Positions 13,120 to 35,458 of a stretch of 42,430 bases of DNA are shown here, piece by piece. Below the pieces are notes generated by a model that was not told where the DNA came from, searched no databases, and saw only the letters and a program-made list of their open reading frames with translations. A program made the translations under genes and the position numbers. Source of the DNA: a virus. The stretch lies in the IMG/VR virus record IMGVR_UViG_3300031578_000123, positions 1 to 42,430 of that record; one strand, given 5' to 3'. Within the stretch, counting starts at the first letter, position 1. Each line of letters opens with the position of its first letter.

Positions 13120-13162
13120 TTGACATAATCCTAACTGATTGACATAATCCATTTAACATAAT
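13120..13162 (+). repeat. Decamer array: TTGACATAAT x2 (13120, 13139) plus TTAACATAAT (13153)
   Basis: Direct reading. The first copy is back-to-back with the minus-strand -35 (TGTCAAgTTGACA palindrome 13113-13125). Confidence 0.9.
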
Positions 13163-13167
13163 ACTTC

Positions 13168-13181
13168 AGAACATTTGTTCT
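13168..13181. promoter_or_regulatory. Perfect 14-bp palindromic box AGAACATTTGTTCT (GAAC-N4-GTTC, Cheo/LexA-box-like)
   Basis: Direct reading; matches the Gram-positive SOS-box core GAAC-N4-GTTC. Confidence 0.6.
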
Positions 13182-13182
13182 G

Positions 13183-13790
13183 GTATACTTAATTATAACC
13201 ATATTACTGTAATAACATATTATACTATACACTGCCATTTGTTTGGATATTCCTTAATCTTAATTAACCAATCATCCAATAATACCATATCCTTAGTCTT
13301 TATCAATGTCCTATCTGATATACCTTTTATCTCAATGCCTTTATCTCTGGCTTTATATAAGGATATAATATATAGGATGGAATTTTCTACTATATCCTCA
13401 TATAAGGCAAACACAATAAATGGTGGTATTCCCGTCTTGATGTGCCATCTAATTAACCATTCCTTATCATATGTATCTATGTAAGGCAGGTATCTTTGAG
13501 ATAATTTCCTAGCTTTTATTTCCAACCAAAATCTATGCCCTTCTCCAATAACATATTTATCCACATGAAGATATTTATAATCTTTACCCTTATGAGGGTA
13601 TCTGATAGGTAATGGGTGGCTACCAACATCCCAAACTTCATAACCAGCTTTGGTGAATATCTTGCTGACCAAATCCTCAGCCTTGAGGCCTATTTCCAAA
13701 TAATCCTGAAACTCCATAAGCGTATTATAACCCTCCTAAATGTATACTCTTATTATCTATAAACAGTAATATGGCTATAATTAAGTATAC
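13183..13790. mobile_element. 608-bp AT-rich cassette bounded by 28-bp inverted repeats (27/28) carrying one PD-(D/E)XK-like ORF
   Basis: 13183-13210 gtatacttaattataAccatattactgt is the reverse complement of 13763-13790 with 1 mismatch. The interior is visibly more AT-rich than the genome. Confidence 0.5.
13220..13717 (-). CDS. PD-(D/E)XK nuclease-like protein (Hjc/endonuclease-like core)
   Basis: 165 aa; GLKAEDLVSKIFTKAGYEV...HVDKYVIGEGHRFWLEIKARK fits an E...D...E-x-K nuclease core; AGGAGGG RBS. Confidence 0.6.
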   Translation of the reverse strand: MEFQDYLEIGLKAEDLVSKIFTKAGYEVWDVGSHPLPIRYPHKGKDYKYLHVDKYVIGEGHRFWLEIKARKLSQRYLPYIDTYDKEWLIRWHIKTGIPPFIVFALYEDIVENSILYIISLYKARDKGIEIKGISDRTLIKTKDMVLLDDWLIKIKEYPNKWQCIV

Positions 13791-13841
13791 ACTAATATAC
13801 ACTAACTCTATGCCCTTAATACTGTTTATAGATACATATAC

Positions 13842-14126
13842 CTATGGCTTGTCCTTTACACCCAAGATAGCTTTTAGCTTATCTATACTATCATCCAAAG
13901 CGGAGTGCCAAGGTGTTTTACCTCCAGTTATTCGCACCCCGCATAGTTGGGCATGAATTGTTGTGAGCAAAGGTATTACATTCCTTAACATAGCATCAGC
14001 ACCATCTTCATAGGCAGTATACTTACCATCAGATACCTGCCTAAAGTGGGCATCAGCCAAGTCCACAAAAGGTGTATCTTGCATGGGAGTATGGGGATTA
14101 TTCCATCCTTCTTTAGGTCTCCACAT
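13842..14126 (-). CDS. Hypothetical protein
   Basis: 94-aa ORF with GGAGGTGAAC RBS. Confidence 0.6.
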   Translation of the reverse strand: MWRPKEGWNNPHTPMQDTPFVDLADAHFRQVSDGKYTAYEDGADAMLRNVIPLLTTIHAQLCGVRITGGKTPWHSALDDSIDKLKAILGVKDKP

Positions 14127-14262
14127 TGTTCACCTCCTTCTGATTAGTGTAAAATTCCTTATCCTTGTCGGCATCCTGTTTTAGCTTCCAGTATAGAAGT
14201 TCATCCCATCCTAGAATCTCCCATTTCTCAGTTTCTTGGTGTTCCTCTATATCAGGCATCAT
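14113..14262 (-). CDS. Hypothetical small protein (start MMPDIEE...)
   Basis: Internal ATG at 14262 preceded by GGAGGAGGAAA; the track ORF extends to 14301. Confidence 0.5.
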   Translation of the reverse strand: MMPDIEEHQETEKWEILGWDELLYWKLKQDADKDKEFYTNQKEVNNVET

Positions 14263-14577: not shown

Positions 14578-15321
14578 TTATGGTATCACTCTAAATGTTA
14601 AATTACTCCTGGTAACCTGTATCTTCATTGACTTTATCTCCTCCTCGGCATGGCGAACCTTCTCAAAGGATAGAATGACCTCACCATCTTTATTGCTATT
14701 GACGGTTCTTATGCTGGTATCACACCAATCCTGCAGGATGCTGGAACCAAACATATCATCAGCACTGGAATATATCTGACCACCAACAACCATTGGCTTT
14801 CGGTCATGGTGTACTAATACGATGGCTACCTTGTACCTGTCTATCATTTGGTTGAGCCAGTCAGTTAGTTTCCTAATGTCATACTCATCCACTATTTTAC
14901 CAGACATGATGGAGTATATTGGGTCTATGATTAGGACTTGTGGGTGGGTTTCTTGTAGCTCCTTCTCGATGTCTGCTCCACCATAAGCTTTATCCAGTTT
15001 GATGTAGTGTTCGGTACGGAAATATAGGTTATCTGGGTACAGTTTGTTGCCATCAACAAATTTCCTAGTGCGTTTCTGGAACAATGCTTTTGGAATCTCA
15101 GTTTGCAGGATATACACGGATGATGGTACAGTTTTGTAGCCAAACCATGGGTTCCCTGTGGCTAGGGTGAAAGCCATGTGTACCACCAACATGGACTTCC
15201 ATGTTTGCCATCTACCAAACAGTATCATCTTGGTCTGTGGTAGCAGGATACCTTGGTCAATGATGTACTGTTGGTGTGGTGGCTGCCATGATAATAATTC
15301 CTTTAGGTTTTGGGCTTTCAT
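14578..15321 (-). CDS. RepA/AAA_25-like RecA-fold ATPase (replicative helicase-like) with atypical Walker A
   Basis: LFGRWQTWKSMLVVHMAFTLATG (Walker A position), VLIIDPIYS (Walker B), AIVLVHHDRKP; the layout is typical of AAA_25. Confidence 0.75.
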   Translation of the reverse strand: MKAQNLKELLSWQPPHQQYIIDQGILLPQTKMILFGRWQTWKSMLVVHMAFTLATGNPWFGYKTVPSSVYILQTEIPKALFQKRTRKFVDGNKLYPDNLYFRTEHYIKLDKAYGGADIEKELQETHPQVLIIDPIYSIMSGKIVDEYDIRKLTDWLNQMIDRYKVAIVLVHHDRKPMVVGGQIYSSADDMFGSSILQDWCDTSIRTVNSNKDGEVILSFEKVRHAEEEIKSMKIQVTRSNLTFRVIP

Positions 15322-15695
15322 TTACCATCGCCACCGTGTCCTTCCAGACCCAATTTCTTCTTCCACTTAGACACAGTGCTGGCATCTACCCTTAGCTTTT
15401 CAGATACCACAGATAGACTGCCATTTACCAATAGTTCCTCCAGCGGTTTGTTGTACTCCCGTTCCAAAGACCTCATTAGGGGAGTTTTCAGTGGATTAGG
15501 CTCACCTAAAGACCTCTGTTCGTTGGAAATACTTTCTAATATTTCCTCTTTGAATGAAGAAAAATGACCACATCTACGATTATTACCCAGCTTCCTTGCT
15601 GGTATCCATATTCCCTTTGGTTTGCAGTAATACCTTTTGCCCTTTGGTGTTAGGGACAGAATGATATTACGGCAGTTGGAGCATCTAACTCTCAT
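15318..15695 (-). CDS. DNA-binding protein: N-terminal Cys-rich region plus C-terminal HTH
   Basis: CSNC...C...C at the N-terminus; LSVVSEKLRVDASTVSKWKKKLGL is HTH-like. Confidence 0.65.
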   Translation of the reverse strand: MRVRCSNCRNIILSLTPKGKRYYCKPKGIWIPARKLGNNRRCGHFSSFKEEILESISNEQRSLGEPNPLKTPLMRSLEREYNKPLEELLVNGSLSVVSEKLRVDASTVSKWKKKLGLEGHGGDGK

Positions 15696-16030: not shown

Positions 16031-16398
16031 GTTCCTAAGATATGGTGTAGGATAAAATAAACCAACTGTTTAGCTTCTGCTTGGTTCATTATTACAGTCC
16101 TTCCCAGCTTATGGTCATTGGTTCTCTGTGTCAGCCAGAATCCAGTATTACGGTACTTAACTATTAGGGATTTCCTAGGGTTATCTGTAATTACCATCAT
16201 GCTATTTATATCCTTAGCCATATCTTCCCCTTTGGCTGTGTATTCCCTTGGTAGATAGTCACAGAAGGTGGTAAAGCCATGATGACCTCTGTTATATTGG
16301 CACTGGAGGCAGACATCTGAGGTTACAGTACCACTTATACCATACTTAGGACACTCACCTGTAAGTCCATGTGTATCAAAGTGTATTTCCTTATCCAT
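16027..16398 (-). CDS. Hypothetical protein
   Basis: 123-aa ORF, coupled to its neighbours. Confidence 0.6.
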   Translation of the reverse strand: MDKEIHFDTHGLTGECPKYGISGTVTSDVCLQCQYNRGHHGFTTFCDYLPREYTAKGEDMAKDINSMMVITDNPRKSLIVKYRNTGFWLTQRTNDHKLGRTVIMNQAEAKQLVYFILHHILGT

Positions 16399-16730
16399 TA
16401 CTTGCCATCCTTCATATACCAGTATTTCTTGAACACCTCTGGCATCTCAGTCTTTGGTACTGAGCCAAGGTAATGACCTATCCAAAACATCACGGAAACC
16501 ATTTCTATTATGTCATCTGCTATCATTATTACCATTGGGTTCCTCATAGCGATGCCAGCTATAATGATGGAACTAGCAGAACGTAGTACCTCTTCCATAC
16601 TATCAAATGTTTCCTTGTCGTTTGACCTTAGGAAGTCAGCGTGGTTCTTGGATTCCTTGAGTAGCTCTAATGTGTCGACCCTCATCTCCTCAACAAACCC
16701 GTGTATATCTCCGAATTCATGCTTTTCCAT
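16398..16730 (-). CDS. Hypothetical protein
   Basis: 110-aa ORF with AAGGAGGAGCA RBS. Confidence 0.6.
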   Translation of the reverse strand: MEKHEFGDIHGFVEEMRVDTLELLKESKNHADFLRSNDKETFDSMEEVLRSASSIIIAGIAMRNPMVIMIADDIIEMVSVMFWIGHYLGSVPKTEMPEVFKKYWYMKDGK

Positions 16731-20652: not shown

Positions 20653-20682
20653 ATTATAATTCCTAGCTATTGATGCTGTCAA
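20653..20682 (-). promoter_or_regulatory. Consensus promoter TTGACA-N18-TATAAT (early leftward)
   Basis: -35 at 20682..20677 and -10 at 20658..20653 on the minus strand, about 85 nt upstream of the 20562 start. Confidence 0.7.
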
Positions 20683-20696
20683 TAGACCAGATGTTC

Positions 20697-20710
20697 GGCT
20701 CATATGTTCT
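20697..20710. promoter_or_regulatory. Box GGCTCATATGTTCT (minus strand AGAACATATGAGCC), just upstream of the early-left -35
   Basis: Direct reading; same family as 13168, 20799, 20900, 21587 and 21644. Confidence 0.5.
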
Positions 20711-20733
20711 AATCCCCCAGGGGGCGGCTTCAC

Positions 20734-20791
20734 TTGACATAATACCACCGATTGACATAATGTTGCTTGACATAATCCTAGTTGACATAAT
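20734..20791 (+). repeat. Decamer array: TTGACATAAT x4 (20734, 20752, 20767, 20782); degenerate TTACATAAT at 20829
   Basis: Direct reading; spacings of 18, 15 and 15 bp. Confidence 0.95.
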
Positions 20792-20798
20792 ACCAACC

Positions 20799-20825
20799 AG
20801 AACATATGTTTCGCACTGGTGTTCT
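20799..20825. promoter_or_regulatory. Two abutting boxes AGAACATATGTTTC and CGCACTGGTGTTCT
   Basis: Direct reading. The first overlaps a possible -10 (TATGTT, 20805-20810) 17 nt after the TTGACA at 20782. Confidence 0.45.
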
Positions 20826-20899
20826 AGGTTACATAATGTTCCCGAAAATGGCGGTTTTGTTGCCCCTTGCTGAATTTTCTCTAGTGACCAGCTATGGTT

Positions 20900-20913
20900 A
20901 GCACATTTGTTCT
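20900..20913. promoter_or_regulatory. Box AGCACATTTGTTCT lying 1 bp from the -35 of the moron promoter
   Basis: Direct reading; near-inverted copy of the box at 21587-21600. Confidence 0.5.
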
Positions 20914-20914
20914 A

Positions 20915-20943
20915 TTGACAACCTTTAGCTAAGGTGTTAAGAT
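20915..20943 (+). promoter_or_regulatory. Promoter candidate TTGACA-N17-TAAGAT for 20997..21530
   Basis: Direct reading. A minus-strand TGATACAAT (20950..20942) overlaps its -10. Confidence 0.5.
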
Positions 20944-20996: not shown

Positions 20997-21530
20997 ATGA
21001 ATGCAAAGGAACTTAGAGACAACCTGGCTATGGTTGCCAAGACAGGCGAAGTAGCCAATATCCGAGCTGCTGTAAAGGCTTTGGATGAGGCTGAGAAAGC
21101 CGAGGCTAAGGCACTAAAGGCAAAGGCTGATGCTAAGTGGGCGGAACAGTCCGCAGCCCGTACAGAGCTTACACAGCGTCTAGAGCAATCTTTGGGCGAA
21201 GTGTCGGGCAAGTTTAGAACCGAGATTTTGAAAGTCGTGGGCGAGGATGAAGCCTTGCTAAGGTTCACAATAGACTACAAGGCCAAGACCAGTTCTTGTA
21301 GCATTGTGCGAACCGTGGCTAAGGCCAGGGGTACAGGCAACGGCAAACACGGTAAGATACAAGCTCTGTTTGAGCAATATGCCACCGCCGGGGAGAGGGC
21401 GGCATTGGCAAAGGCAATCGAAGATGCCAGAGTGGAGGACGCCCTGTGCAGGGTGGATGCTATTGAATGGAAACATCGCACCAATGTCAAGAAGCGATTG
21501 CTACTTGAAGGTACAATTCAAGCTGAATAG
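20997..21530 (+). CDS. GC-rich moron protein of unknown function (177 aa, Ala/Lys/Glu-rich helical N-terminal half)
   Basis: ACGAGGAGAG RBS; own promoter and terminator; base composition visibly more GC-rich than the rest of the genome. Confidence 0.75.
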   Translation: MNAKELRDNLAMVAKTGEVANIRAAVKALDEAEKAEAKALKAKADAKWAEQSAARTELTQRLEQSLGEVSGKFRTEILKVVGEDEALLRFTIDYKAKTSSCSIVRTVAKARGTGNGKHGKIQALFEQYATAGERAALAKAIEDARVEDALCRVDAIEWKHRTNVKKRLLLEGTIQAE

Positions 21531-21541
21531 TTATCACAAGG

Positions 21542-21574
21542 CGGGGGGATGCCATCACTCCCCGTCTTTCTTTT
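21542..21574 (+). terminator. Intrinsic terminator (G/C stem plus TCTTTCTTTT)
   Basis: cggggggatgccatcactccccg stem-loop followed by a T-rich run, 12 nt after the stop codon. Confidence 0.6.
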
Positions 21575-21586
21575 ATGCCTGTGATT

Positions 21587-21600
21587 AGAACATTTGTGCT
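21587..21600. promoter_or_regulatory. Box AGAACATTTGTGCT
   Basis: Direct reading; near-inverted partner of 20900-20913. Confidence 0.5.
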
Positions 21601-21624
21601 ACTTCTCGCCACCAGCCACAATAG

Positions 21625-21657
21625 TTGACATAATACCAGCATTAGAACATTTGAGCT
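21625..21657 (+). promoter_or_regulatory. Single TTGACATAAT (21625-21634) followed by box AGAACATTTGAGCT (21644-21657)
   Basis: Direct reading; same decamer-then-box order as at 13.1 kb and 20.8 kb. Confidence 0.5.
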
Positions 21658-21725
21658 AGGGTACGGGTGACGACATTATGAGGTATGGGCTTGATTTAGG
21701 ACCACTCTCGCAAATTTACTTTCCC

Positions 21726-21910
21726 TATAACCAAATCCATGATGATAACCAAATCCATGATGAGCAATCATTACATTATAACCAAATCCATTTTGATTGG
21801 TTTATTAGCCAAGATGGTTTCGGAATCCCAGATGAGCAATACATTCATTTCATGGTTTAATCATCTGGTATTACCTCATCTACATTTTATCCATTCATGG
21901 TTTAATCATA
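21726..21910. repeat. Iteron-like repeat field (candidate replication origin or protein-binding platform)
   Basis: AACCAAATCCAT x3 (21729, 21747, 21780), GATGAGCAAT x2 (21759, 21831), TTCATGGTTTAATCAT x2 (21849, 21894), AT-rich, between convergent units. Confidence 0.45.
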
Positions 21911-21994
21911 TACCTGAATGCCCAGATGGAATATGTTAATGCAAACCAGAATCTTCTAAACCAGTTCATTTATCCCTCCAAATTATCCAAATCC

Positions 21995-22231
21995 CTATCG
22001 TAAGGATGGAACATATGGGGCTTCATGCAAAGTTTTTCCTATTGCCATCAGGCAAGTATCCTGTGTGATGGGAAACAATCTTGTCTTATCACACCATTTG
22101 CACCAGAATTCACCATATCCATTTCCATTCTTGGATGGTATCTGAATCCAGAAATGGGCACCTGTGGGTGACTTGTCACACTTCCACAGACCATCTTCTA
22201 TGTAGTTGGTATAGATTCCTTTATTATCCAT
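21995..22231 (-). CDS. Hypothetical Cys/Trp-rich protein
   Basis: 78-aa ORF; overlaps the upstream gene by 34 nt; weak RBS. Confidence 0.5.
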   Translation of the reverse strand: MDNKGIYTNYIEDGLWKCDKSPTGAHFWIQIPSKNGNGYGEFWCKWCDKTRLFPITQDTCLMAIGKTLHEAPYVPSLR

Positions 22232-22611
22232 TTTGCGGGTGTGCCTCCAATATCTCTCATTTCCTCAGCTATCTTGTCCATCTCTGATTCTAGCCTGATG
22301 GATTCCAATATATCATCGGGGAACTTTTTCAATCCATTCTTCCTCTGTTTGAACCTATTGTATCTCCTGATGAGTAGGTATCTTTTCCTAGCATCTTCTG
22401 ATGACATGGGCAATTTCTTCCTGCCACGGATTCCTGGTGTGTAGGGATTATTATTAAGATACGCCATGCCATTGTCTACCCAGCATTGTGGGTGGAAATA
22501 CATCCTGTAAGTCCTATCACTTTTTTTGGTCTGCCCGATTACCATAGGAGTAGATGCCTCAATCTGGTGTTCACAGTAATGGCATTTGGTGGTTCTCTTG
22601 CACCATGTCAT
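22198..22611 (-). CDS. Zinc-finger plus basic-region protein (possible regulator)
   Basis: CKRTTKCHYCEH...FHPQCW followed by an Arg/Lys-rich segment; TAGGAGGCAAATAAAATTG RBS; first gene after a consensus promoter. Confidence 0.6.
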   Translation of the reverse strand: MTWCKRTTKCHYCEHQIEASTPMVIGQTKKSDRTYRMYFHPQCWVDNGMAYLNNNPYTPGIRGRKKLPMSSEDARKRYLLIRRYNRFKQRKNGLKKFPDDILESIRLESEMDKIAEEMRDIGGTPAKWIIKESIPTT

Positions 22612-22651: not shown

Positions 22652-22681
22652 ATTATAATACCTTAGTCAGCTATAAGTCAA
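22652..22681 (-). promoter_or_regulatory. Consensus promoter TTGACT-N18-TATAAT (leftward)
   Basis: -35 at 22681..22676 and -10 at 22657..22652 on the minus strand. Confidence 0.7.
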
Positions 22682-22682
22682 G

Positions 22683-22748
22683 ATGACATAACACTCAATG
22701 GTTGACATAATACTAAATATCCGAGTTGACATAATGACTTGACATAAG
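22683..22748 (+). repeat. Decamer array: ATGACATAAC (22683), TTGACATAAT (22702, 22726), TTGACATAAG (22739)
   Basis: Direct reading. The first copy lies back-to-back with the leftward -35. Confidence 0.9.
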
Positions 22749-22767
22749 ATTATCAACATGATACAAT
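22739..22767 (+). promoter_or_regulatory. Promoter TTGACA-N17-TACAAT with extended TGn -10 (rightward)
   Basis: TTGACATAAGATTATCAACATGATACAAT. The -10 ends 6 nt before the ATG at 22774. Confidence 0.7.
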
Positions 22768-22773: not shown

Positions 22774-23286
22774 ATGGGAGCTAATGTGGCTACTTCCGCT
22801 ACTCCTGAGGATATTGCTGAATCCATAGTACCATATTTCCCTGAGGATGGCAAGAAGTCCAAATACCTAGCTTACAGGGTTTGTGGCTTTAACATCAGGG
22901 AATCCATGAGCCTTGCCAATGTTTCACTTACCAGCATCAGAAGGTGGCGTGAGGCTGATGAGGAATTTGTCAAACTAGATACCACAGGGCTTAATGAGCT
23001 AAAGGAAAAGCTTAGTGCTAAATACCTCAATGTTGAATTCACCCGCAACTTCCACCTAGTCCTGCAAAAGGACTTCAATGTCCTTGTCAAGAGCATCAAG
23101 GCTCCAAACAGTCTAACTGTCCAAGAGAATCAGTACCTTCTCAAACTAAGGGCTTTCTATACCCCTCAGCAGTTTGCCGTGATACAGGAATTGGTAGGTG
23201 AAGCTGTTGGTCCAGGGTTTGATTTTACCAAGCTCATCTTTGAGGTTAGGAGAGAAAGGGAAGAAGTGAGGATAACCAGTGAATAA
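22774..23286 (+). CDS. HTH DNA-binding protein (regulator or small-terminase-like)
   Basis: YRVCGFNIRESMSLANVSLTSIRRWREADEEF is HTH-like. Either a leaderless ATG at 22774 or a GTG at 22786 after GGGAG. Confidence 0.65.
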   Translation: MGANVATSATPEDIAESIVPYFPEDGKKSKYLAYRVCGFNIRESMSLANVSLTSIRRWREADEEFVKLDTTGLNELKEKLSAKYLNVEFTRNFHLVLQKDFNVLVKSIKAPNSLTVQENQYLLKLRAFYTPQQFAVIQELVGEAVGPGFDFTKLIFEVRREREEVRITSE

Positions 23287-23444: not shown

Positions 23445-23690
23445 ATGGAAACATTAACTAGCCTAATAGTCATTGGGGTAGTGGTTGCTGGCAATGTAAT
23501 TGGTTGGGTTTACAGCTATGGCAAGTTGTCACAGAGGGTTGAGGACATAAATGGTACTTATGTTAGCATGGCTAAGAGTTTGAAGGAGCTTGATGGTAAA
23601 GTTAATGGCATCAGTCGTCATGTGGCTAACCTTGAAGGAACATTAACAACATTTATGGAGCTTATGAAGGAGAACCGTGGCAAAGGGTAA
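23445..23690 (+). CDS. Membrane-anchored coiled-coil protein (lysis-related?)
   Basis: N-terminal TM LIVIGVVVAGNVIGWVY, then a helical region; AAGGAGAATTAG RBS. Confidence 0.55.
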   Translation: METLTSLIVIGVVVAGNVIGWVYSYGKLSQRVEDINGTYVSMAKSLKELDGKVNGISRHVANLEGTLTTFMELMKENRGKG

Positions 23691-27582: not shown

Positions 27583-27789
27583 ATGAAATTAACTTGGGAA
27601 GAATGTCATGCTTTTGTTATAGGATTCGGTCATGCCATTTGGATTTGGAAAAGACTTCCAATGCCATTAAATTATAAGAATCCACTAGAAGAGGAGTACC
27701 ACTATTATGTTGCTGGTGGTGCTACCGCTGTACTTATAATGGTGGGTATTATTGTTGGTATGATAATTTACATAGGGAGGCTAATATGA
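27583..27789 (+). CDS. Small membrane protein
   Basis: ATG at 27583 after GGTGGTAAA; C-terminal TM GGATAVLIMVGIIVGMIIYIG. Confidence 0.55.
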   Translation: MKLTWEECHAFVIGFGHAIWIWKRLPMPLNYKNPLEEEYHYYVAGGATAVLIMVGIIVGMIIYIGRLI

Positions 27790-29468
27790 CTGAGTTGACT
27801 TCAAGGAACATAATAACCCAGTGTACCGAGCTAAAGAATTATTGGAGTGTTAGGAATAAGCAATTCCAAGACTGGTATGACATATTGTTATTGACCAACG
27901 ACTTGGAACAGGAGGACATGGAGAGTGTCATATCCAATGACCCTGGAACATCATTCAGAATGGCTCTCCATCTATTAACATCTAGTATCATATCCCATAA
28001 GATACCTACTGAAATGCTGGAACGCCCTGAGATAGTGGATACCAGCAAACTAGAGCATTATGTAACTAACCATTGGCTGAGACTAGGGAATAACCACAGG
28101 AGATTAGGTAAGCAATCATGGCTTAGGGAGCTGGTTAGCCTTATGTTGGCTACTGGATGGTATTCTGTATTTGTCCTAGCTACCCCGAATGAACTAATAG
28201 CTGAGGTCTGGAATCCGATGGAGGTATTCCCTGAATTCTCTAGTGATGGTTTGCTCCGCTGTGCCCATGTTTACCCACTAACACCAATGGCTGCAAACCG
28301 TAAAGCAAAGCTGAATAAGTGGCCTATTGAGAGACCATTCAATTCTCCTACCACCCTATACAATTACTTTGTGGTGGATGATGATGGTGATGTAGCTAAT
28401 GCCATCGTTCTTGGTAATAACCTTGTCAGACCAATAACCAAGCTTGCTAGGAATGAACAGGCATCCGATGTTATACCAATATTTGTGTCTCCTGTTGCTG
28501 GACTCCCTGATATGGGGATAATTAAATCTGGCAAAGGGTGGCAGAAAAACTATGGTGAATCCATAATTGCTGTAAATGCTGTGGAGTATAAGAACCAGAA
28601 TAAGATGCTATCCTATATCCAACAATTGGTTAGGGATTCTGCCAATCCAAGATGGTTTGAACAGTCCCGTAGTGATAAAGGTATATTGTCACCAGAGACC
28701 ATCTTCAAGCGTGGTGGTATATTCCGTGGTAGTCCAGAGGACAATGTTACTCCATTGCCAACTGTTCCAATCCCAGTAGAGATAAGAACCATACTATTTG
28801 ATTATGCCAATAGAATCCAGAGAGGTTTATTCCCTTGGGCTATATTTGGAAACGTACAGCAAACCACATCAGGTTATATGATGTCCCAAATTGCTGCTGC
28901 TGCCATGAACGCTCTTACTCCATACGCTGAGGCAATGACTGGACTGATAGGTGATGTGGATAATTACTGGCTCCATGAGATTAAGGAGCGTGGTCTTAAA
29001 CCATACAAACTTGAAATGCCAAAGAATATCCCACCTGATGCTGAGTTTGTGGTAGAATACAACATCAATATCCCTGGTAGCCTAGTCCAGCGAGCAACTG
29101 TGGCTAGGATGCTAGACCCAACCTTTAGATTTGATTTTGCTACCACTACTGATTTACTATTCCCCGAAATCAAAGACCCATTGAGGGTACAGGGTAGAGT
29201 CAACAAGGATGATGCTATGATGAATGAAATAGCTCAAGCCTTAGCCTTAATAGATGTTTACCGAACTATGGCAAGGGAAGCTAAAGAAGATGGGGATGCT
29301 ACTACCTCTGCATTGTACACCAAAGCTGCTGATGCTGTGGAAGCCCAATTAGGAGGAGCACAGCCAAAATCACCAGCACTACCTAGAGCCAAGGAGGTTA
29401 GGACAGCAGCACCAAGAGAGGAAGGGATGGCTCCTACACCGTCTGGTGGAGCACTTGAGGGAATGTAA
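27786..29468 (+). CDS. Portal protein (by position and size)
   Basis: 560-aa ORF directly after TerL and before the head genes; no motif verified. Confidence 0.65.
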   Translation: MTELTSRNIITQCTELKNYWSVRNKQFQDWYDILLLTNDLEQEDMESVISNDPGTSFRMALHLLTSSIISHKIPTEMLERPEIVDTSKLEHYVTNHWLRLGNNHRRLGKQSWLRELVSLMLATGWYSVFVLATPNELIAEVWNPMEVFPEFSSDGLLRCAHVYPLTPMAANRKAKLNKWPIERPFNSPTTLYNYFVVDDDGDVANAIVLGNNLVRPITKLARNEQASDVIPIFVSPVAGLPDMGIIKSGKGWQKNYGESIIAVNAVEYKNQNKMLSYIQQLVRDSANPRWFEQSRSDKGILSPETIFKRGGIFRGSPEDNVTPLPTVPIPVEIRTILFDYANRIQRGLFPWAIFGNVQQTTSGYMMSQIAAAAMNALTPYAEAMTGLIGDVDNYWLHEIKERGLKPYKLEMPKNIPPDAEFVVEYNINIPGSLVQRATVARMLDPTFRFDFATTTDLLFPEIKDPLRVQGRVNKDDAMMNEIAQALALIDVYRTMAREAKEDGDATTSALYTKAADAVEAQLGGAQPKSPALPRAKEVRTAAPREEGMAPTPSGGALEGM

Positions 29469-29722
29469 TGTGTGATATTTGTGATGTAATGCTAAGGTAT
29501 GGGATAACTGATGTCCATTCCAGCAAGGCTATTTCCTTGTGTCTGAATTGTCCTGAACCAGTGTGCCTATTGGGAGTAGACCATAAACAGCATATGTCCC
29601 ATGGTAGGATAGCTGAGGCTTCCAGACTAGCTGGTTCTGGTCTTGGTACAGCAGGGATAGCCAAGACAATGCACAAGAGCAAAAGACAGGTATTAAGATA
29701 TTTGGAGGAAGTAAATGCCTAA
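29468..29722 (+). CDS. Cys-rich plus HTH small DNA-binding protein embedded in the head module
   Basis: CDIC...CLNCPEPVC, then GSGLGTAGIAKTMHKSKRQVLRYLEE (LuxR/sigma region-4-like HTH by eye). Confidence 0.6.
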   Translation: MCDICDVMLRYGITDVHSSKAISLCLNCPEPVCLLGVDHKQHMSHGRIAEASRLAGSGLGTAGIAKTMHKSKRQVLRYLEEVNA

Positions 29723-32700
29723 TGGTTTTGCTGAAGAACTAAGGAAATGGAATGAACAACTCCAAGGGAGTATAACTAGGCTGACATCCGTTGAATCAGA
29801 GGTTGCGGGACTGAGGAAGAAAACTGAGAAGCCATTACCTTGGTGGCAGAGATTGATATTTTGGACTCCTCCGTCCCAATGGCAAACAGTAAGTAAATTG
29901 GCAGGGGAGCAGATTCCTTCTCCAGCTACACCAGAGTTTTGGGCTAAGAGACCTATTGAGGAGAAGCTACAAGAGGAACTTGTTGCCATAGATGATTATA
30001 ACCGTGCTGCATGGTTCTCCGTACTTTATTCTGTTAGTCCAGATGACCTTAGGAAGCTAGGTATCACCAGCTTTGAGGACTGGGTTGAAAAGCATCCTCC
30101 TGAGGCTGGGACATCCACCACTGATTTAACCAGAGCAAAGGAATACATAGACACAATACTTTCTGTTGCTGAACCAACAAAACCTACCATAGCTACTGAG
30201 GAAATGATAGCCGAAGGATTCCTTACAGAACCTTTGGAAACAAGACCTAGATTCAAGGGCATCCATATAACAACTGTGGAAGAAATGACAAAGTGGCTCA
30301 GGAAGGAAGTACCTCCAGTAGAACGCCCTCCAGGATTAACAGAAGGTGGATTGTTAGGCTATCTTAAGGAGGAAAGAGGTCTCAGTGATGAGGAATTAGC
30401 CTACATAGATGAATCCGTTAGTCCTTTTATACAGATGGTTGAAGAGTATGAGGAAGGAAGGGAACAAACAGCACGGTATAAAGCTGGGTTAGAAACTCCA
30501 GAAATGCCTGAATTGTCCATTGGTCAGAAGATTAAACTGATTGCTTCCCAACCGATACTAGCCTTGATTGACACCATGCAGCCCTATTGGACATATTGGG
30601 ACTACCCTAGGTCTGCTATCCTTGCCAGACTTTCACACCGTATTGAGGAGACATTGAGTTTTCCCATTACTATGCCTGGTGCTAAACCTACACCAGAGGA
30701 GGAAGGATTACTTGATGAATTGGATACTCTATATGAGGCTAACAGGGAAGCTGGCATGGATTATTGGATGGCTCACAGCAAAGCATGGCAGGATTGGGAA
30801 CTTAACCATTGGGCAAAGATGGGCATTGAGATAATCTCTGACCCTGTGTCATATCTTGGGTTTGGTCTCTTGATGAAGGCTGGGAAGGCAACCAAAGGTA
30901 TACCCGTCATAGGTAGGATAATGGGTGGGCTAGGCTCCTTTGAGCGTGGGTTTATAGCAGTTACCGAAGCGTTACCTACATTCATTAAGTCCAAAATAAT
31001 AAAACTTCCAAAAACCACAGGACAGAGGGCTGCTTTGGCTGGTGCAGAGGTTAGTGATACCATAATATCAGTGCATGGTAAGAATGCTTCTGGTTTAGGG
31101 AAAACATTAAAGCAGATAACTCCAGATGATTTTGTTAAACTAAATGAGGAGTCAATAGCCCGTGCAGTAGCACACCCAGATGTTGTTGACCCACTTACCC
31201 AGCTTGGTTGGTCTTATATCAAAAGAACTCCAATGACCCATAATGAACTGTTGGAATGGGGAGCTAAGGTTACCTCCAAACTAGGTCCTGATGATGTCAC
31301 ACCAGGCATGGTTGACAACATAGAGAGAATCCTTGAACACGCAAAGGTTAAGGGTAGCAGGTTTCCTGTTAACAACCTTGACCTAGCTGCTAAGGAAATC
31401 CTACTAGGAACCCTGAATGTGGCTGATTCACCTAGTAACATGAAGGTCATAAAGTCCTTAATCAGGAAAGCCTATAAGACCAGCATTGATGAAGCCTTAG
31501 AAACAGCACGATTACCAATAACCCAATCCATCAAGACCGCTTCCCTAAAAGCTGAGAATATAGTTTGGTCGGAAGCCACCGAAAAACTATTCTTTAAGAG
31601 GATGCACCAAGGCTATGTTGCTGGTATAATGCACGAAGTCCTTGACCCACTAGAAACCCAAGTATGGCGTGGTTTTATAGACAAACAAATAGTTATGCCA
31701 TTTGCCAGAGCATACCTCATAACTGGTTCCTATGCTCCTTGGAACTGGTTTGAAGAAGTATTCAGGACTGTGCTTGGTAGAGGTGGAGGAGTCTATGGCA
31801 AGAACGCTCCAGCTAGATTAGAAAATCTTGCTATGGGGTTAATGCTTGATAGGGATGTTCTTAGAGGAGCAGAATTAGCCAAGATGTCATATACCAATAT
31901 ATTGAAGAAAAGGTTGCTGAAACCTGGTGCTCCCGTTGGCATGGGTGAAATATCTGAGGCTGCATTACTCAAGGAAACTGCTGAGGCTGTTGGTAAACCA
32001 GCACTAGAGAAACTATTGCTCCTTGGCTGGTTACCAGGTGGCAAAGGTAGAGCAGTCCATGAGGCAATGTATTTCCCAATCAGAGCTTCCCAGTGGGCTG
32101 GTGGTATGCAGCGGGCTGGATATGTTGCTAAGAAATTCTTTGACAACCTTGATGATATAGCACCTGATACAATGGCAGCTCTCAGAGGAGCAAAGCCTTC
32201 TAAACCACCAAGCGTTATAGGTCAACCTAGGAAAGCACAAAAGGCTTTTCTCCAACGGTGTGATGATAATGCTTTTATTGGTCCAACAAAGACCGAGAAC
32301 ACACCTAGAGAGTTTTCCATGAAGAATACCTCCTTAGCCGAGGGTTATTCTGCCAGTCTAAAGTATCCTGAGCTTGGTGACACCAGAGATTTCATCCTAA
32401 GCCATATTGAGACTGATAATTGGGATAATGTTCTTGCTGTTACTGGTGAAGCCAAGACCATGATGGCGGATAACCTAATCAATTCTCCAGAAGGTAGTAG
32501 GATATTCCTCAAGAACATTACCGATGACATACTGAAAAATGCTGAGAAGGTAACCACACCAGATGAGCTTATGGGTTATGTGGATGCTCTTAGGGAAATT
32601 ACAGGGATAAATCCTAAAACCATCCAAAAGCTATTTGTTGGTCTCCATGACAAAGCATCCAAGCTACCATCAAAAGCAGCAAGGGTAGAAATGTATAATG

Positions 32701-35396
32701 TTGGTCACCAGAGCATTGCTCCATTCCTTGACGAGGGTGAAAAGCAAGCTGGGAGGTTGTTAAACTTTATAAAGAAGAATTCAAAGGTATTGACTCCCGC
32801 ACAGGTAACAGAGCTTAACAAAACCCTTAACATATACACAGCCAGGATAGCAGCTTTGCAGGACACCAGGCGTTTAGCTATGGCTAGGAGCCAAGAACTT
32901 ATAGCTCAGGGTTTTGGTCCTGGTAGTGATAAGTTTGTGGCTGAAAGGAATGAAATTTGGATGAAGCACCTTAATGAGGTGGACCCTGAGTTATTTGCCA
33001 CACAGGAAATGCTGGCTGAGGGTATAGATACCTTAATAACACCTAGGAACATACCAAAACCCACCATAAATGCCTCAGTTAGAGGATTAACTCCAGCCGA
33101 TGTAGCTGCATTGCATTATGGCACAGGAGACCAACTAGCCTTTGGTTTAATGAATTCCGAAATGCTGATGCAAAAACCATACTACATGAAACTGACCATA
33201 GCCAGAGCTAATGCTATGGCAGCAAGAGCCAATACCACCCGTGAAGCCTTGGGATTTACCGATGATGCCATATCCCAAGTTTATGACCAGATACTTTATA
33301 GTCTGAGGTCTAGTCCAGAATTCCACAATATGCTTACCAGACCCTATGCTGAGGTGGATAACTTTGCCAGAGATTTGGAATCCATCAAATTAGCTGGTGG
33401 CACCAGTCCTGATGCCATGAAAGCAATGCAGGATTATGCTACCACATATGCTAACAACCTGAGGAAATTGGACATATACAAACCTTATGTTCCACCAGCT
33501 AAACCCCCAAAGAAACCAGCAGTCAAACTTCCTGGTGAAGGCTCCGAAGATTGGTGGCGTATTAAACAGGAAGCTATGGATAAAACAATGATTTCCTATC
33601 ACCAAGACTTCACCGACTATTCCAACATGAACGCTTTGGATGATGCTATGAGACACGTATTTCCATACTGGGTATATGAATCCCAGCGGTGGTTCTGGCT
33701 TGCTAGGAACATGGTAACCCATCCAGGAATTATGAACACTTGGGCTAAATACATGGATAACACGGACTTTGGTTACATCCATATGCCAGGTACTTCCCTA
33801 GATGCCAATGTCCTCAGAGGTACTGTTTACAAAGGTGGCATGAGTACCCTTGTCCGCAGGGACTATCCAGAATACTATGATAGGATGTTCCCTGAATTAT
33901 TTGAATCAATGGATTATGCCCAAAGACTAGGATTCTTCCCCAATATATTCTGGAGTATTCCAGTATCTATGTATGGTGGCAGACAACCACAGTTTGGACA
34001 GTTACTTCCTGCTGTGGCTAGAACTCCATTGGACTTATATGTTGCCTCCAACCCTGATTCCGAATCTGCTAGAGCATTGCAGGATATACTATTCCCTGAT
34101 TACTTTAGGCAGTATCTCCAAATAACCCAAGCCTCCCATATGGCTAGTGTTGGACAAATCCAAAGAGGCATTAACGGTGTGTATATCTGGGAAAAGATGC
34201 AGCGTAGTGAGGAACTTACCTTAGAAGAACAGGAACTATGGGATGCTGCTAGAGGTAAAGTAGCTTCCTATGCTCCACTAATGGAACACGGTGGCATATA
34301 CCGCCTAAGACATGAGGACAGAATAGCAGCCTATGATTGGTGGGGTAAATTCATTGAGGAGAAAACCGGTGTGTCTGTGGAAATGCAAGATGACCTGAGA
34401 AAGCACGGTATGTCCGTAGGTGATGTCTGTCCTGGGTTATCACAGTTGGATATGGCACAGATAGAGGAAGCATTGGAGTACAAAAGATGGATTGCACCTA
34501 GAGCAACTGCACCACTAAGACCTAGTAATGAGATTGAGGTTAACCTAATCCTATCAGAGTTTTGGGGTATGGTAAGGCAACATGGGGATACCTCAGAAAG
34601 TTCCATAAAGGAACTGGAGAGACAAGCCTTTGTTGAGAGGAGTATCTCCGCTGAGGATTATGTTACCAGGGTTGGAGATATTATGGAGGAAAATGCTAAG
34701 TATATCCACCAGCTCAGAGGTGATAAGTTTGACCACACCACAGGGGAGTGGGAAGCCAATCCTCAGAGTAAGAGTAAATTCAAGATTGTCCCTGTAACCC
34801 TTGATGAAAGGTCAGCCTTTTATACCGAAAGGGGAGTTAATCTGTCCATGTCCACCCTAGATGAAATGCTGGCTATGTGGTATGATATATCCCCGCAGGA
34901 GAAGATAGACCCTGAGACTGGTACTAGATACATGGATTGGGGAACCTACTTTGCCACTATGGATGCTATTGAGAAATTGCTTCCTACCAGCCTAAAAGCC
35001 GAATGGCAATCCTATATGTCTAGGAATAATACTCCAGGCTGGCTCATGTATAGAAATGCTACCAAGCAATATCTAGCTCCGTATTGGAATGTAACCAATG
35101 TCATTAAGGACCAATTCACCCCAGATGAACAGTCCCTAATAGATGAGTATTACATGGTTAAAGATATTGACCCAGCCAGAGCCGAGGAGATTCAGGACAT
35201 GACCAGACCCAATGGACTAAAGCTTATATCCCAATATAGGTCTGCTCTTACCAATGCCAGGAAGAAGCTAAGAATGACTGTTCCAATGGTAGATGCCCAA
35301 CTTATGTTTTGGGGTAGGACTTCTACATTTCTTACTCCAGAGGCAGAGAGGATGTATAACCAATTAGTACAGGAAGCTAAGGGGTTCCCTCAGTGA
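29715..35396 (+). CDS. Giant protein (1,893 aa) of unknown function; candidate internal virion/ejection protein
   Basis: Uninterrupted 5.7-kb ORF between portal and scaffold; no catalytic motif recognised by eye. Confidence 0.8.
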   Translation: MPNGFAEELRKWNEQLQGSITRLTSVESEVAGLRKKTEKPLPWWQRLIFWTPPSQWQTVSKLAGEQIPSPATPEFWAKRPIEEKLQEELVAIDDYNRAAWFSVLYSVSPDDLRKLGITSFEDWVEKHPPEAGTSTTDLTRAKEYIDTILSVAEPTKPTIATEEMIAEGFLTEPLETRPRFKGIHITTVEEMTKWLRKEVPPVERPPGLTEGGLLGYLKEERGLSDEELAYIDESVSPFIQMVEEYEEGREQTARYKAGLETPEMPELSIGQKIKLIASQPILALIDTMQPYWTYWDYPRSAILARLSHRIEETLSFPITMPGAKPTPEEEGLLDELDTLYEANREAGMDYWMAHSKAWQDWELNHWAKMGIEIISDPVSYLGFGLLMKAGKATKGIPVIGRIMGGLGSFERGFIAVTEALPTFIKSKIIKLPKTTGQRAALAGAEVSDTIISVHGKNASGLGKTLKQITPDDFVKLNEESIARAVAHPDVVDPLTQLGWSYIKRTPMTHNELLEWGAKVTSKLGPDDVTPGMVDNIERILEHAKVKGSRFPVNNLDLAAKEILLGTLNVADSPSNMKVIKSLIRKAYKTSIDEALETARLPITQSIKTASLKAENIVWSEATEKLFFKRMHQGYVAGIMHEVLDPLETQVWRGFIDKQIVMPFARAYLITGSYAPWNWFEEVFRTVLGRGGGVYGKNAPARLENLAMGLMLDRDVLRGAELAKMSYTNILKKRLLKPGAPVGMGEISEAALLKETAEAVGKPALEKLLLLGWLPGGKGRAVHEAMYFPIRASQWAGGMQRAGYVAKKFFDNLDDIAPDTMAALRGAKPSKPPSVIGQPRKAQKAFLQRCDDNAFIGPTKTENTPREFSMKNTSLAEGYSASLKYPELGDTRDFILSHIETDNWDNVLAVTGEAKTMMADNLINSPEGSRIFLKNITDDILKNAEKVTTPDELMGYVDALREITGINPKTIQKLFVGLHDKASKLPSKAARVEMYNVGHQSIAPFLDEGEKQAGRLLNFIKKNSKVLTPAQVTELNKTLNIYTARIAALQDTRRLAMARSQELIAQGFGPGSDKFVAERNEIWMKHLNEVDPELFATQEMLAEGIDTLITPRNIPKPTINASVRGLTPADVAALHYGTGDQLAFGLMNSEMLMQKPYYMKLTIARANAMAARANTTREALGFTDDAISQVYDQILYSLRSSPEFHNMLTRPYAEVDNFARDLESIKLAGGTSPDAMKAMQDYATTYANNLRKLDIYKPYVPPAKPPKKPAVKLPGEGSEDWWRIKQEAMDKTMISYHQDFTDYSNMNALDDAMRHVFPYWVYESQRWFWLARNMVTHPGIMNTWAKYMDNTDFGYIHMPGTSLDANVLRGTVYKGGMSTLVRRDYPEYYDRMFPELFESMDYAQRLGFFPNIFWSIPVSMYGGRQPQFGQLLPAVARTPLDLYVASNPDSESARALQDILFPDYFRQYLQITQASHMASVGQIQRGINGVYIWEKMQRSEELTLEEQELWDAARGKVASYAPLMEHGGIYRLRHEDRIAAYDWWGKFIEEKTGVSVEMQDDLRKHGMSVGDVCPGLSQLDMAQIEEALEYKRWIAPRATAPLRPSNEIEVNLILSEFWGMVRQHGDTSESSIKELERQAFVERSISAEDYVTRVGDIMEENAKYIHQLRGDKFDHTTGEWEANPQSKSKFKIVPVTLDERSAFYTERGVNLSMSTLDEMLAMWYDISPQEKIDPETGTRYMDWGTYFATMDAIEKLLPTSLKAEWQSYMSRNNTPGWLMYRNATKQYLAPYWNVTNVIKDQFTPDEQSLIDEYYMVKDIDPARAEEIQDMTRPNGLKLISQYRSALTNARKKLRMTVPMVDAQLMFWGRTSTFLTPEAERMYNQLVQEAKGFPQ

Positions 35397-35434
35397 ATTA
35401 AATATACACACTGATTTAATTATGTTAGTTTAGC

Positions 35435-35458
35435 TTGACATAATGATATTGACATAAA
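35435..35458 (+). repeat. Decamer pair TTGACATAAT (35435) and TTGACATAAA (35449)
   Basis: Direct reading. Confidence 0.9.

Follow-up and report, generated by a model that had tools for sequence, protein, structure and literature searches.

The window analysed here, a stretch of 42,430 nucleotides, is the complete, circularly assembled genome of a novel 42-kb phage: positions 1-127 equal positions 42304-42430. The same 6.3 kb recurs at 100% identity in two other samples. A decamer, TTGACATAAT, is repeated at five intergenic loci, on or beside strong sigma-70-type promoters, and is accompanied by a second motif, a LexA-like box (GAAC-N4-GTTC).

Arrays, promoters and boxes of the genome

The decamer occurs in 10 exact copies, all on the + strand, at 13120, 13139, 20734, 20752, 20767, 20782, 21625, 22702, 22726 and 35435. 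The expectation is 0.22, and none of 100 dinucleotide-preserving shuffles reached 10. Five variants complete the set: TTAACATAAT at 13153, ATGACATAAC at 22683, TTGACATAAG at 22739, TTGACATAAA at 35449 and GTTACATAAT at 20828. With one mismatch allowed, there are 20 hits against 5.95 expected. The features are as follows.

13118..13162 (+): array A, three half-sites, AGTTGACATAAT (13118-13129), TTGACATAAT (13139-13148) and TTAACATAAT (13153-13162), immediately upstream of the -35 of the minus-strand promoter at 13118 and overlapping it by 1 nt.
20732..20837 (+): array B, four exact copies (20734, 20752, 20767, 20782; the first reads ACTTGACATAAT) plus GTTACATAAT at 20828-20837; the four-copy block is bracketed by two inverted pairs of LexA-like boxes.
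21623..21634 (+): single half-site AGTTGACATAAT, flanked on both sides by LexA-like boxes.
22681..22748 (+): array D, ATGACATAAC (22683), TTGACATAAT (22702 and 22726) and ACTTGACATAAG (22737-22748); the first copy abuts the -35 of the minus-strand promoter at 22681, the last is the -35 of the late (terS) promoter.
35435..35458 (+): array E, TTGACATAAT (35435) and TTGACATAAA (35449); the last copy is the -35 of the promoter in front of the scaffold and capsid genes.
22739..22767 (+): late promoter TTGACA-N17-TG-a-TACAAT in front of the terminase small subunit gene (22774-23286; weak PHROG terS hit).
35449..35478 (+): late promoter TTGACA-N18-TG-a-TACAAT in front of 35512-36045 and the capsid gene 36059-37072.
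13089..13118 (-): perfect promoter TTGACA-N18-TATAAT driving 12862-13056 (ribbon-helix-helix-like by our reading of the sequence) and the replication genes downstream.
20653..20682 (-): perfect promoter TTGACA-N18-TATAAT driving the leftward early operon; its -35 abuts a pair of LexA-like boxes.
22652..22681 (-): promoter TTGACT-N18-TATAAT driving 22198-22611 (PARP-type zinc-finger protein) and 21995-22231.
20915..20943 (+): promoter TTGACA-N17-TAAGAT (with TG) for the conserved 177-aa gene 20997-21530; its -35 abuts a LexA-like box.
20683..20710: two adjacent LexA-like boxes (TAGACCAGATGTTC, GGCTCATATGTTCT), the left arm of the inverted repeat bracketing array B.
20799..20826: two adjacent LexA-like boxes (AGAACATATGTTTC, GCACTGGTGTTCTA), the right arm of that repeat.
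20901..20914: LexA-like box GCACATTTGTTCTA, abutting the -35 at 20915.
13168..13181: LexA-like box AGAACATTTGTTCT (perfect GAAC-N4-GTTC), just right of array A.
21587..21600: LexA-like box AGAACATTTGTGCT, left of the single decamer.
21644..21657: LexA-like box AGAACATTTGAGCT, right of the single decamer.

The observation made in the first-pass annotation, fifteen intergenic copies at five loci and all on one strand, is thus confirmed; only the position 20829 that it gave for the last variant is one base off. All 15 lie in intergenic DNA, which is 8.8% of the genome under our gene set; the probability is 5e-6 even if the five loci are counted as five events. The same-strand probability is 6e-5 for 15 sites, but only 0.06 if counted as 5 loci. 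One further copy with an intact core (ATGACATAAT, 16507) lies on the minus strand inside a gene, and may be there by chance. The annotated promoters hold as well, both the late promoters whose -35 is the last copy and the minus-strand promoters at 13118 and 22681, back to back with the first decamer.

The eight boxes of the window fit TAGAAC-N4-G(T/A)(T/G)C(TA) and are conserved in relatives. Of 49 boxes, 12 lie within 120 bp of arrays against 2.6% expected (p = 4e-9). They fit the Gram-positive 'Cheo' box, a GAAC-N4-GTTC palindrome at promoters; recognition by LexA is inferred from sequence alone.

Conservation of the decamer and identity with the XerD arm of dif

The arrays are conserved, but their spacing and copy number change between close relatives. 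In the closest relative, L061, array B has one copy where the window has four, while the boxes and the GTTACATAAT copy are kept; at array E it has four copies. Array D is conserved in L061 and in L065, another relative. The orthologue of array A in the relative L068 has three copies with changed spacing and changed first three bases, but an unchanged ACATAAT. Orthologous copies differ only at positions 1-3 and 10: the invariant core is ACATAA, whereas TTG and the last T vary.

With its two 5' flanking bases each decamer reads A(C/G)TT(G/T/A)ACATAA-T. The unit A(C/G)TTGACATAA-T is the exact reverse complement of published actinobacterial and myxobacterial XerD arms of dif, the bacterial chromosome dimer-resolution site. 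ATTATGTCAA lies in the published dif sites of Frankia alni (CACGCCGATAATGCACATTATGTCAAGT, PMC3025954), Actinoplanes, Sorangium and Burkholderia mallei. The reverse complements of their 11-bp XerD arms, ACTTGACATAA and AGTTGACATAA, are the commonest 11-mers of the window family (10 and 6 copies), and AGTTGACATAAT occurs 4 times in the window.

We then compared a position matrix of 87 array copies with 48 proteobacterial dif sites. It aligned best as a reverse complement onto the XerD arm, with a score of 5.30 against a null of 1.94 +/- 0.65 (z = 5.2; 0 of 2000 shuffles reach it), although the shuffle null does not model the AT-richness shared by the two motifs. The information profile mirrors that reported for the XerD arm (PMC2731167), with the inner part (ACATAA) invariant. 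The sites match the 11-bp arm TTATGT(A/C/T)AA-N-T, of which the inner part is the most conserved. Position 3, corresponding to dif position 24, varies as G, T or A and is never C in any group, matching the dif table, where position 24 is never G. Every variant seen in the arrays exists as a natural dif arm.

Unrelated phage contigs carry similar irregular non-coding arrays. One such group (contigs L323, L356, L367, L419 and L348) uses ATTTAACATAA as its top 11-mer; in contig L345 it is the commonest and in L365 it ranks second. This is the reverse complement of the E. coli-type arm TTATGTTAAAT. The flank position is T when position 3 is A or T, and C or G when position 3 is G, as in natural arms. 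Contigs assigned to Nocardia and Acidimicrobiia use ACTTGACATAA. As a specificity control, pairs of a reversed decamer are as common in IMG/VR, but almost all sit in coding tandem repeats whose spacings are multiples of 3: one control locus has an irregular non-coding array, against 13, 18 and 10 loci for the three XerD-arm variants.

The sites are not complete recombination sites. No ATAA-N5-8-TTATG partner, as expected for an inverted XerC arm across a 6-8 bp central region, lies at any array. The only ACATAA-N7-TTATGT pair (23540) lies inside a gene, and the same search found none in the closest relative. The 15 copies at five loci also depart from the single dif copy per replicon, near the replication terminus. 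Nor does the genome resemble an IMEX-type element integrated by host XerCD: it has no full site, and the best 120 of 353 listed terminase-large-subunit relatives sit on contigs of at most 59 kb (most of the longer ones 40-45 kb), never on long bacterial contigs.

A proposed operator role and its alternatives

We propose that the decamers are XerD-type half-sites arrayed as operator clusters, on which a monomer-binding protein sits, most plausibly the host's own XerD recombinase. We hold this reading to be about as likely as not. Every strong sigma-70-type promoter of the genome is overlapped or directly abutted either by a half-site (the late promoters at 22739 and 35449, the leftward promoters at 13118 and 22681) or by a LexA-type box (20682 and 20915). 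In this view, bound protein would occlude sigma region 4 and keep the promoters quiet, in particular the otherwise constitutive late ones. Relief could come from titration of the small host XerD pool as phage DNA replicates, with 15 sites per genome copy, and from LexA cleavage at the boxes. This suggests that the phage wires its gene expression to a universal host protein.

The analysis itself establishes the identity of the motif with XerD arms, its conservation pattern, its co-variation with host-type dif arms in other phage groups, its position relative to promoters and the absence of an identifiable phage-encoded binder. That XerD binds, with or without XerC, that binding represses, and the titration timer are inferred; the timer is a proposal with no direct support. 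The link to XerD rests on sequence identity and co-variation only, with dif arms of bacteria at large. XerD is not known to act as a transcription factor. G at position 3 also creates a perfect -35 (TTGACA), so part of that preference may reflect promoter function rather than the host's dif. Some family members (L317 and L316) have consensus late promoters without any half-site, so the layer is dispensable.

Among the window's ORFs we found no recombinase and no CI/Cro-type or other repressor-type domain, though small unrecognisable proteins cannot be excluded. Beyond terminase large subunit, helicase and methylase, no protein family is shared between the window family and the other array-bearing contigs; a small, fast-evolving phage protein encoded outside the stretches examined for those contigs remains possible. 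The conserved neighbouring proteins persist in L317, which has no decamers.

The interpretation offered in the first-pass annotation was partly supported. The arrays are real, non-random and promoter-associated, and among the roles it suggested, operators for a DNA-binding protein fit best; like its author, we found no description of such arrays in the literature we could search. It missed both the identity with the XerD arm and the accompanying LexA-type box. The three phage proteins it named as binders are not supported: 29468-29722 (annotated as a sigma-region-4-like HTH) has no domain hit and is shared only with the closest relative; 22774-23286 (an HTH) is a weak terminase small subunit whose family persists in L317; and the promoter of the 12862-13056 family (RHH-like) carries LexA-like boxes instead of decamers in contigs L025 and L067.

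Orientation relative to the genome, which it took as conserved, is not supported as a defining property: it holds for this subfamily only, and L356, L348 and the relatives L315 and L318 mix orientations. A simpler explanation for the lock is available. The last copy doubles as a rightward -35; arrays most simply grow by local duplication, and copy number does differ between close relatives; and the promoter-plus-array module at 13.1 kb is a paralogue of that at 22.7 kb.

The strongest alternative, though unlikely, is a phage-encoded regulator that binds an asymmetric site as a monomer and controls many operons, like the gp71 repressor of mycobacteriophage L5 with its stoperators or the C1 repressor of P1; the likeness to XerD arms would then be coincidence or mimicry. 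The sites are asymmetric, lie next to promoters at many loci, and in relatives overlap core promoter elements in either orientation. Candidate DNA-binding proteins exist: the zinc-finger protein 22198-22611, the protein 12862-13056, and 15318-15695, which by our reading has a zinc ribbon followed by a helix-turn-helix. Phage general transcription factors can also keep one specificity across a large family, as at the late promoters of T4-like phages. However, the same motif, with the same variant spectrum, occurs in phage contigs sharing no detectable small protein with the window, and it shifts to the E. coli-type XerD arm, flank included, in other phage groups; a private phage repressor would not be expected to track host dif arms. 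The persistence of the neighbouring proteins in L317 and the boxes at the 12862-13056 family promoter in L025 and L067 also speak against it.

It is more doubtful that XerD, or a XerD-like host protein, binds for a purpose other than promoter control. The arrays would then act like the XDS sites of Bacillus subtilis, as places where SMC-type complexes (condensin, MukBEF, or a defence system such as Wadjet) are unloaded or stalled, or would drain XerD from the host chromosome. XerD is reported to unload Smc-ScpAB at dif-like XDS sites, and an artificial XDS array to block SMC translocation (PMC11840125, PMC11894783). Phages are known to counter SMC complexes, and a viral DNA mimic is reported to inhibit MukBEF (PMC7617805). 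The window's sites are likewise half-sites without XerC arms. Yet the arrays are found only at promoter-bearing gaps, 5 of about 20 intergenic gaps, with the last copy as the -35 or, in relatives, the site in the spacer. That precision is not needed for unloading, and there is no evidence that SMC complexes load on phage DNA of this kind.

Tandem RNA polymerase or sigma recruitment, also put forward in the first-pass annotation, is not supported and appears very unlikely. Each decamer would fuse a -35 (TTGACA) with an extended -10 (TG-a-CATAAT), the arrays being stacks of tandem promoters or a sink concentrating holoenzyme. Pairs spaced 19 and 18 bp (13120/13139, 22683/22702, 20734/20752) do form TTGACA-N16/17-TG-a-CATAAT, and the last copies of arrays D and E are genuine -35 elements. 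For the set as a whole, however, the TTG positions are the least conserved. C at the would-be -12 position is invariant in the window family (47 of 47) and present in 37 of 39 copies in the other contigs, while the would-be -7 T is replaced by C, G or A in a quarter to a third of copies. Spacing ranges over 13-47 bp, and the 19-bp spacing is lost in the closest relative. Variants without TTGACA (TTTACATAAT, TTAACATAAT) form the same kind of array in other phages, and the remoter relatives L315 and L318 carry an inverted copy inside the spacer, or over the extended -10, of consensus late promoters.

Least likely are packaging or replication landmarks (terminase small subunit or pac sites, origin iterons): arrays often lie next to terminase genes (the window at 22.7 kb, contigs L111 and L365) or primase genes (contigs L009, L053, L055 and L356), but five dispersed loci in one genome do not suit a pac site or an origin, the terminase and primase families differ between the contigs that share the motif, and the window has separate iteron-like repeats at 21726-21797.

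Comparison with known systems

With the XerD arm of dif, the arrays share the 11-bp sequence found in Actinobacteria, Myxococcales and Burkholderia, the conservation profile, the variants and the co-variation of the flank. Like the XerD-only XDS sites of B. subtilis, they lack a working XerC partner. They differ from dif in having no XerC arm and no central region, in their many copies in irregular direct repeats, and in lying on a phage genome at promoters rather than singly at a replication terminus.

The L5 stoperators and P1 C1 operators are likewise short asymmetric sites; they are bound by a monomer, occur at many places at and near promoters, and silence several operons at once. The L5 site also contains the -35-like CTTGACA. 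Those sites are bound by a phage-encoded repressor, with a sequence specific to an immunity group, and L5 sites are oriented relative to transcription and dispersed singly rather than in tandem arrays. Here no phage repressor is identifiable, the motif is shared by unrelated phages, and at 13.1 kb the sites point against the local minus-strand genes.

Other phages are governed by host proteins, such as the tectivirus GIL01 (LexA plus gp7) and the filamentous CTX-phi (LexA at PrstA, XerCD for integration); use of XerCD by vibriophages is reported in the literature. LexA-type boxes lie at promoters of the present phage, some as adjacent pairs as in GIL01, and as with CTX-phi, LexA and Xer recognition sequences occur together without an integrase of its own. 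CTX-phi, however, uses full XerC plus XerD sites for recombination, whereas here XerD half-sites only are arrayed and placed on promoters of a 42-kb tailed phage.

Finally, the omega heptads of pSM19035, the Cox boxes of P2 and the Apl sites of phage 186 are also arrays of short direct repeats in promoter regions, with copy number varying between loci and one protein acting on several promoters. Those repeats are contiguous or phased with the DNA helix and bound by an element-encoded protein; here the spacing is irregular, and the unit equals the site of a host recombinase.

Genome context, decamer arrays and LexA-type boxes

The 42,430 bases form a complete, circularly assembled phage genome, bases 1-127 being repeated at 42304-42430. 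It has no nucleotide match among 50,697 GenBank phages, and its protein matches are remote only. Structural and packaging genes run rightward from 22.7 kb through the end and on to 5.4 kb, whereas a replication module, including family A DNA polymerase, a methylase and a DnaB-like helicase, runs leftward from 20.6 to 5.6 kb. No integrase, other recombinase, CI/Cro-type repressor, sigma factor or partition protein was found in any ORF, and searches for tRNA genes and Rfam families returned nothing. The terminase large subunit has at least 353 relatives; among the 120 best listed, no contig exceeds 59 kb (most of the longer ones are 40-45 kb) and none lies on a long bacterial contig.

The observation of the first-pass annotation, an intergenic decamer always found on the + strand, is confirmed. 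TTGACATAAT occurs 10 times exactly, all on the + strand, against 0.22 expected; with one mismatch there are 20 hits against 5.95 expected. The five variants it listed are present, one coordinate being a base off: GTTACATAAT is at 20828. All 15 sites are intergenic, in a genome that is 8.8% intergenic under our gene set. The only core-intact copy outside the five loci, ATGACATAAT at 16507-16516, lies inside gene 16398-16730 and on the opposite strand.

What had been claimed of the promoters is also correct: the last copies at 22739 and 35449 are -35 elements, and perfect or near-perfect minus-strand promoters sit back to back with the first copy at two loci. In addition, eight boxes of the form TAGAAC-N4-G(T/A)(T/G)CTA (core GAAC-N4-GTTC, consensus TAGAAC-N4-GTKCTA), which the first-pass annotation did not list, stand next to the arrays, some as adjacent pairs. 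Every strong promoter in the window is overlapped or abutted at its -35 by one of the two motifs:

13118 (minus strand): promoter back to back with the first decamer copy
22681 (minus strand): promoter back to back with the first decamer copy
22739 (+ strand): last decamer copy, the -35 of a TTGACA-N17/18-TG-n-TACAAT promoter
35449 (+ strand): last decamer copy, the -35 of a TTGACA-N17/18-TG-n-TACAAT promoter
20682: promoter abutted at its -35 by a box
20915: promoter abutted at its -35 by a box
13168-13181, 20683-20710, 20799-20826, 20901-20914, 21587-21600, 21644-21657: positions of the eight LexA-type boxes

Two inverted pairs of boxes bracket the four-copy array at 20.7 kb. The boxes are conserved in relatives, are strongly associated with the arrays in this family (p = 4e-9), and fit the LexA box of Gram-positive bacteria. 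In the relatives L025 and L067, two boxes occupy the place that decamers hold upstream of the 12862-13056 promoter in the window. The two motifs therefore look functionally interchangeable.

Conservation of the decamer and its likeness to the XerD arm of dif

Relatives were fetched from IMG/VR and other assemblies, and arrays lie at the homologous loci. Compared with the closest relative, which is about 75-83% identical in DNA, orthologous copies differ only at positions 1-3 and 10, never in ACATAA, while spacing changes and so does copy number: four in the window against one at 20.7 kb, two against four at 35.4 kb. A position matrix built from copies within two mismatches gives about 2 bits for positions 4-9; positions 1-3 and 10 score less, there is a purine two bases upstream, and the base after the decamer is almost never T. 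That profile is the reverse of what a -35 or a -10 would show. Remoter relatives have consensus late promoters with an inverted copy inside the spacer (genomes L315 and L318) or over the extended -10 (L315). This is an operator position, and the inverted copy cannot be a -35.

The lock to the + strand holds in the window and in its near relatives when they are oriented like the window, but it fails in L315 and L318, and in the array-bearing contigs L356 and L348 from other phage groups. It has simple explanations: the last copy must read TTGACA rightward, arrays most simply grow by local duplication (copy number does differ between close relatives), and the promoter-plus-array module at 13.1 kb is a paralogue of the one at 22.7 kb.

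With its flanks the unit reads A(C/G)TTGACATAA-T, the reverse complement of the 11-bp XerD arm of dif plus the first base of the central region. The string ATTATGTCAA is in the published dif sites of Frankia alni, Actinoplanes, Sorangium and Burkholderia mallei. The other array variants (TTAACATAAT, TTTACATAAT, GTTACATAAT and the forms ending in C) all occur as natural arms in the table of PMC2731167. The array matrix aligns to the XerD arm of 48 dif sites with z = 5.2, a score reached by 0 of 2000 shuffles. The XerD arm is reported to be best conserved in its inner part and variable at positions 23-24 (PMC2731167), and the arrays have the same profile: array position 3 is G, T or A but never C, matching the dif table, where position 24 is never G.

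No XerC arm accompanies any copy; these are half-sites, not recombination sites. The only dif-like inverted pair in the window, GGACATAA-ATGGTAC-TTATGTTAG with a 7-bp centre, lies at 23540-23568, inside gene 23445-23690, and the same search found no such pair in the closest relative (L061). Two further loci, L018 and L021, have a comparable pair, TT(T/G)ACATAA-N7-TTATGTAAA. The 5.9-kb IMG/VR locus L426 holds at least one full dif-like site with both arms (ATTTAACATAA-TATAAA-TTATGCGACAG) and a second, degenerate copy; it resembles the plasmid pdif sites of Acinetobacter, unlike the half-site arrays elsewhere.

The motif is not private to this phage. The same decamer forms irregular non-coding arrays in IMG/VR contigs of G+C 0.35-0.59 that share no small protein with the window, as well as in contigs assigned to Nocardia, Acidimicrobiia, Aurantimicrobium and Chloroflexota. 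A control scan with the reversed decamer found as many pairs, but nearly all of them lie in coding tandem repeats with spacings that are multiples of three.

Loci with irregular non-coding arrays, by decamer scanned.
Control (reversed decamer): 1
TTGACATAAT: 13
TTAACATAAT: 18
TTTACATAAT: 10

The TTA-type arrays belong to other phage groups, with a D5-like primase, different terminases and no recombinase. Their commonest 11-mer is ATTTAACATAA, the E. coli-type XerD arm, and the flank base co-varies with position 3 just as it does in natural dif arms. A motif that changes in step with phylum-specific dif arms across unrelated phages points to the host's XerD as the binder, rather than to a private phage repressor. 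The half-site may also be used at the end of an insertion sequence: on a Nocardia chromosome (locus L121, 3315-3348), a pair of ACTTGACATAAT repeats, 24 bp apart, lies at the start of a gene for an rve-family transposase.

Candidate binders and proposed mechanism

The interpretation offered by the first-pass annotation is partly supported: its general idea of an operator for a DNA-binding protein stands, but its specific phage candidates (29468-29722, 22774-23286 and 12862-13056) and its polymerase idea are not supported. Pfam and PHROG searches of these three and of the other neighbouring proteins gave nothing, apart from a weak terminase small subunit hit. BLASTP clustering and profile HMMs of 82 window protein families, searched against ORFs of 14 other array-bearing contigs, found only generic terminase large subunit, helicase and methylase hits, and listing the ORFs that flank the arrays was uninformative.

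Gene presence and absence across seven family genomes further showed that the proteins next to the arrays are conserved across the family, including L317, whose late promoters are perfect consensus without any decamer. We therefore consider the following unlikely to be the binders:

20997-21530: 177-aa protein
21995-22231 (minus strand): 78-aa zinc-finger protein
22198-22611 (minus strand): 137-aa protein, N-terminus weakly matching PARP-type zinc fingers
22774-23286: terminase small subunit

The two zinc-binding proteins are transcribed divergently from the terminase operon; the 137-aa one has an invariant C-x2-C...H-x2-C motif, and its profile weakly matches PARP-1 zinc fingers (E about 0.01), followed by a basic helical tail. 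Its exact sequence is not on record. The 12862-13056 family is found with boxes alone in L025 and L067.

Other known motifs were compared by eye and rejected: DnaA box, IHF, Fur hexamers, OmpR/PhoP/RpaB direct repeats (wrong period, and CATAA is not expected), FNR/CRP half-sites, Tus/RTP Ter sites, matS, Chi, KOPS and BlaI/CopY boxes. Promoters formed by pairs of decamers were also rejected, as the 19-bp spacing is not conserved in the closest relative.

We propose that host XerD monomers occupy the half-sites. Those on or next to a -35 would exclude sigma region 4 and silence the promoters, the otherwise constitutive late ones above all; LexA would do the same at the boxes. Replication of the phage DNA would titrate the small XerD pool and release late transcription, while SOS induction would release the box-controlled promoters. 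Our analysis establishes the sequence identity, its conservation and co-variation, the promoter geometry and the lack of a phage candidate, whereas binding, repression and titration are inferred. In a variant with the same binder, the arrays would act like XDS sites, which unload SMC complexes; we rank it lower because the placement on core promoter elements is so exact.

The feature is a promoter-embedded array of XerD-type half-sites, paired with LexA-type boxes. A literature search with the decamer string gave no relevant paper, and we found no description of such arrays in tailed phages. XerD is known as a recombinase and, in Bacillus subtilis, as an SMC unloader; promoter-embedded arrays of its half-sites on phage genomes would show that phages read or exploit this protein. 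They would give a concrete model of how a phage with no recognisable repressor, activator or sigma factor of its own times or silences consensus-strength late promoters, and would supply natural XerD-only binding arrays for studying XerD outside recombination.

More tentatively, and on balance somewhat less likely than not, tailed phages of several unrelated lineages may carry XerD half-site arrays matched to the dif arm of their own host phylum. They would use this universal, low-abundance chromosome-maintenance protein as a transcriptional silencer and as a gauge of genome copy number for late genes, or alternatively as a device in cis for evicting SMC complexes. This would be a new class of phage cis-element and a new role for XerD. 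The apparent match between the array 11-mer and phylum-specific dif arms could also become a sequence-only signal of host phylum for the many uncultivated phages of this 42-kb family and others.

Host inference and other features of the genome and its relatives

An actinobacterial-type XerD arm, a GAAC-N4-GTTC box and strong Shine-Dalgarno sequences point to an actinobacterium of moderate G+C as the host, Chloroflexi being a second possibility; this is inference only, and in this view the host's dif would carry TTATGTCAA(G/C)T. A scan of genome contigs with the decamer pair returned mostly unrelated hits and no relative of the window, and an array-bearing contig labelled E. coli matches no E. 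coli genome and no phage.

Next to the array at 13.1 kb, a 28-bp inverted repeat, 96% complementary (13183-13210 and 13763-13790), flanks the 165-aa gene 13220-13717. The window has about 1.1 kb (13.2-14.56 kb) that the closest relative (L068) lacks, which looks like a small inserted cassette. In the 465-bp gap 21530-21995, three direct repeats of TATAACCAAATCCATGATGAT (spacing 18 and 33) lie at 21726-21797 (also 21719-21849), downstream of what looks by eye like a G+C-rich stem-loop at about 21541-21567. They could be iterons of an origin, or part of a small ORF or RNA.

An ORF of 1893 aa (29715-35396) lies between the 560-aa ORF 27786-29468, whose position suggests the portal although it has no domain hit, and the scaffold gene. 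It has no Pfam hit at all and is conserved across the whole family at 1963-2358 aa (L315, L316, L317, L318). Finally, several terminase large subunit genes of the family (L317 10001-12613, also P0037, P0048, P0086 and P0121) are about 860 aa instead of about 520 aa; they carry a LAGLIDADG domain, and in one case an intein-splicing domain, suggesting an intein in the terminase.
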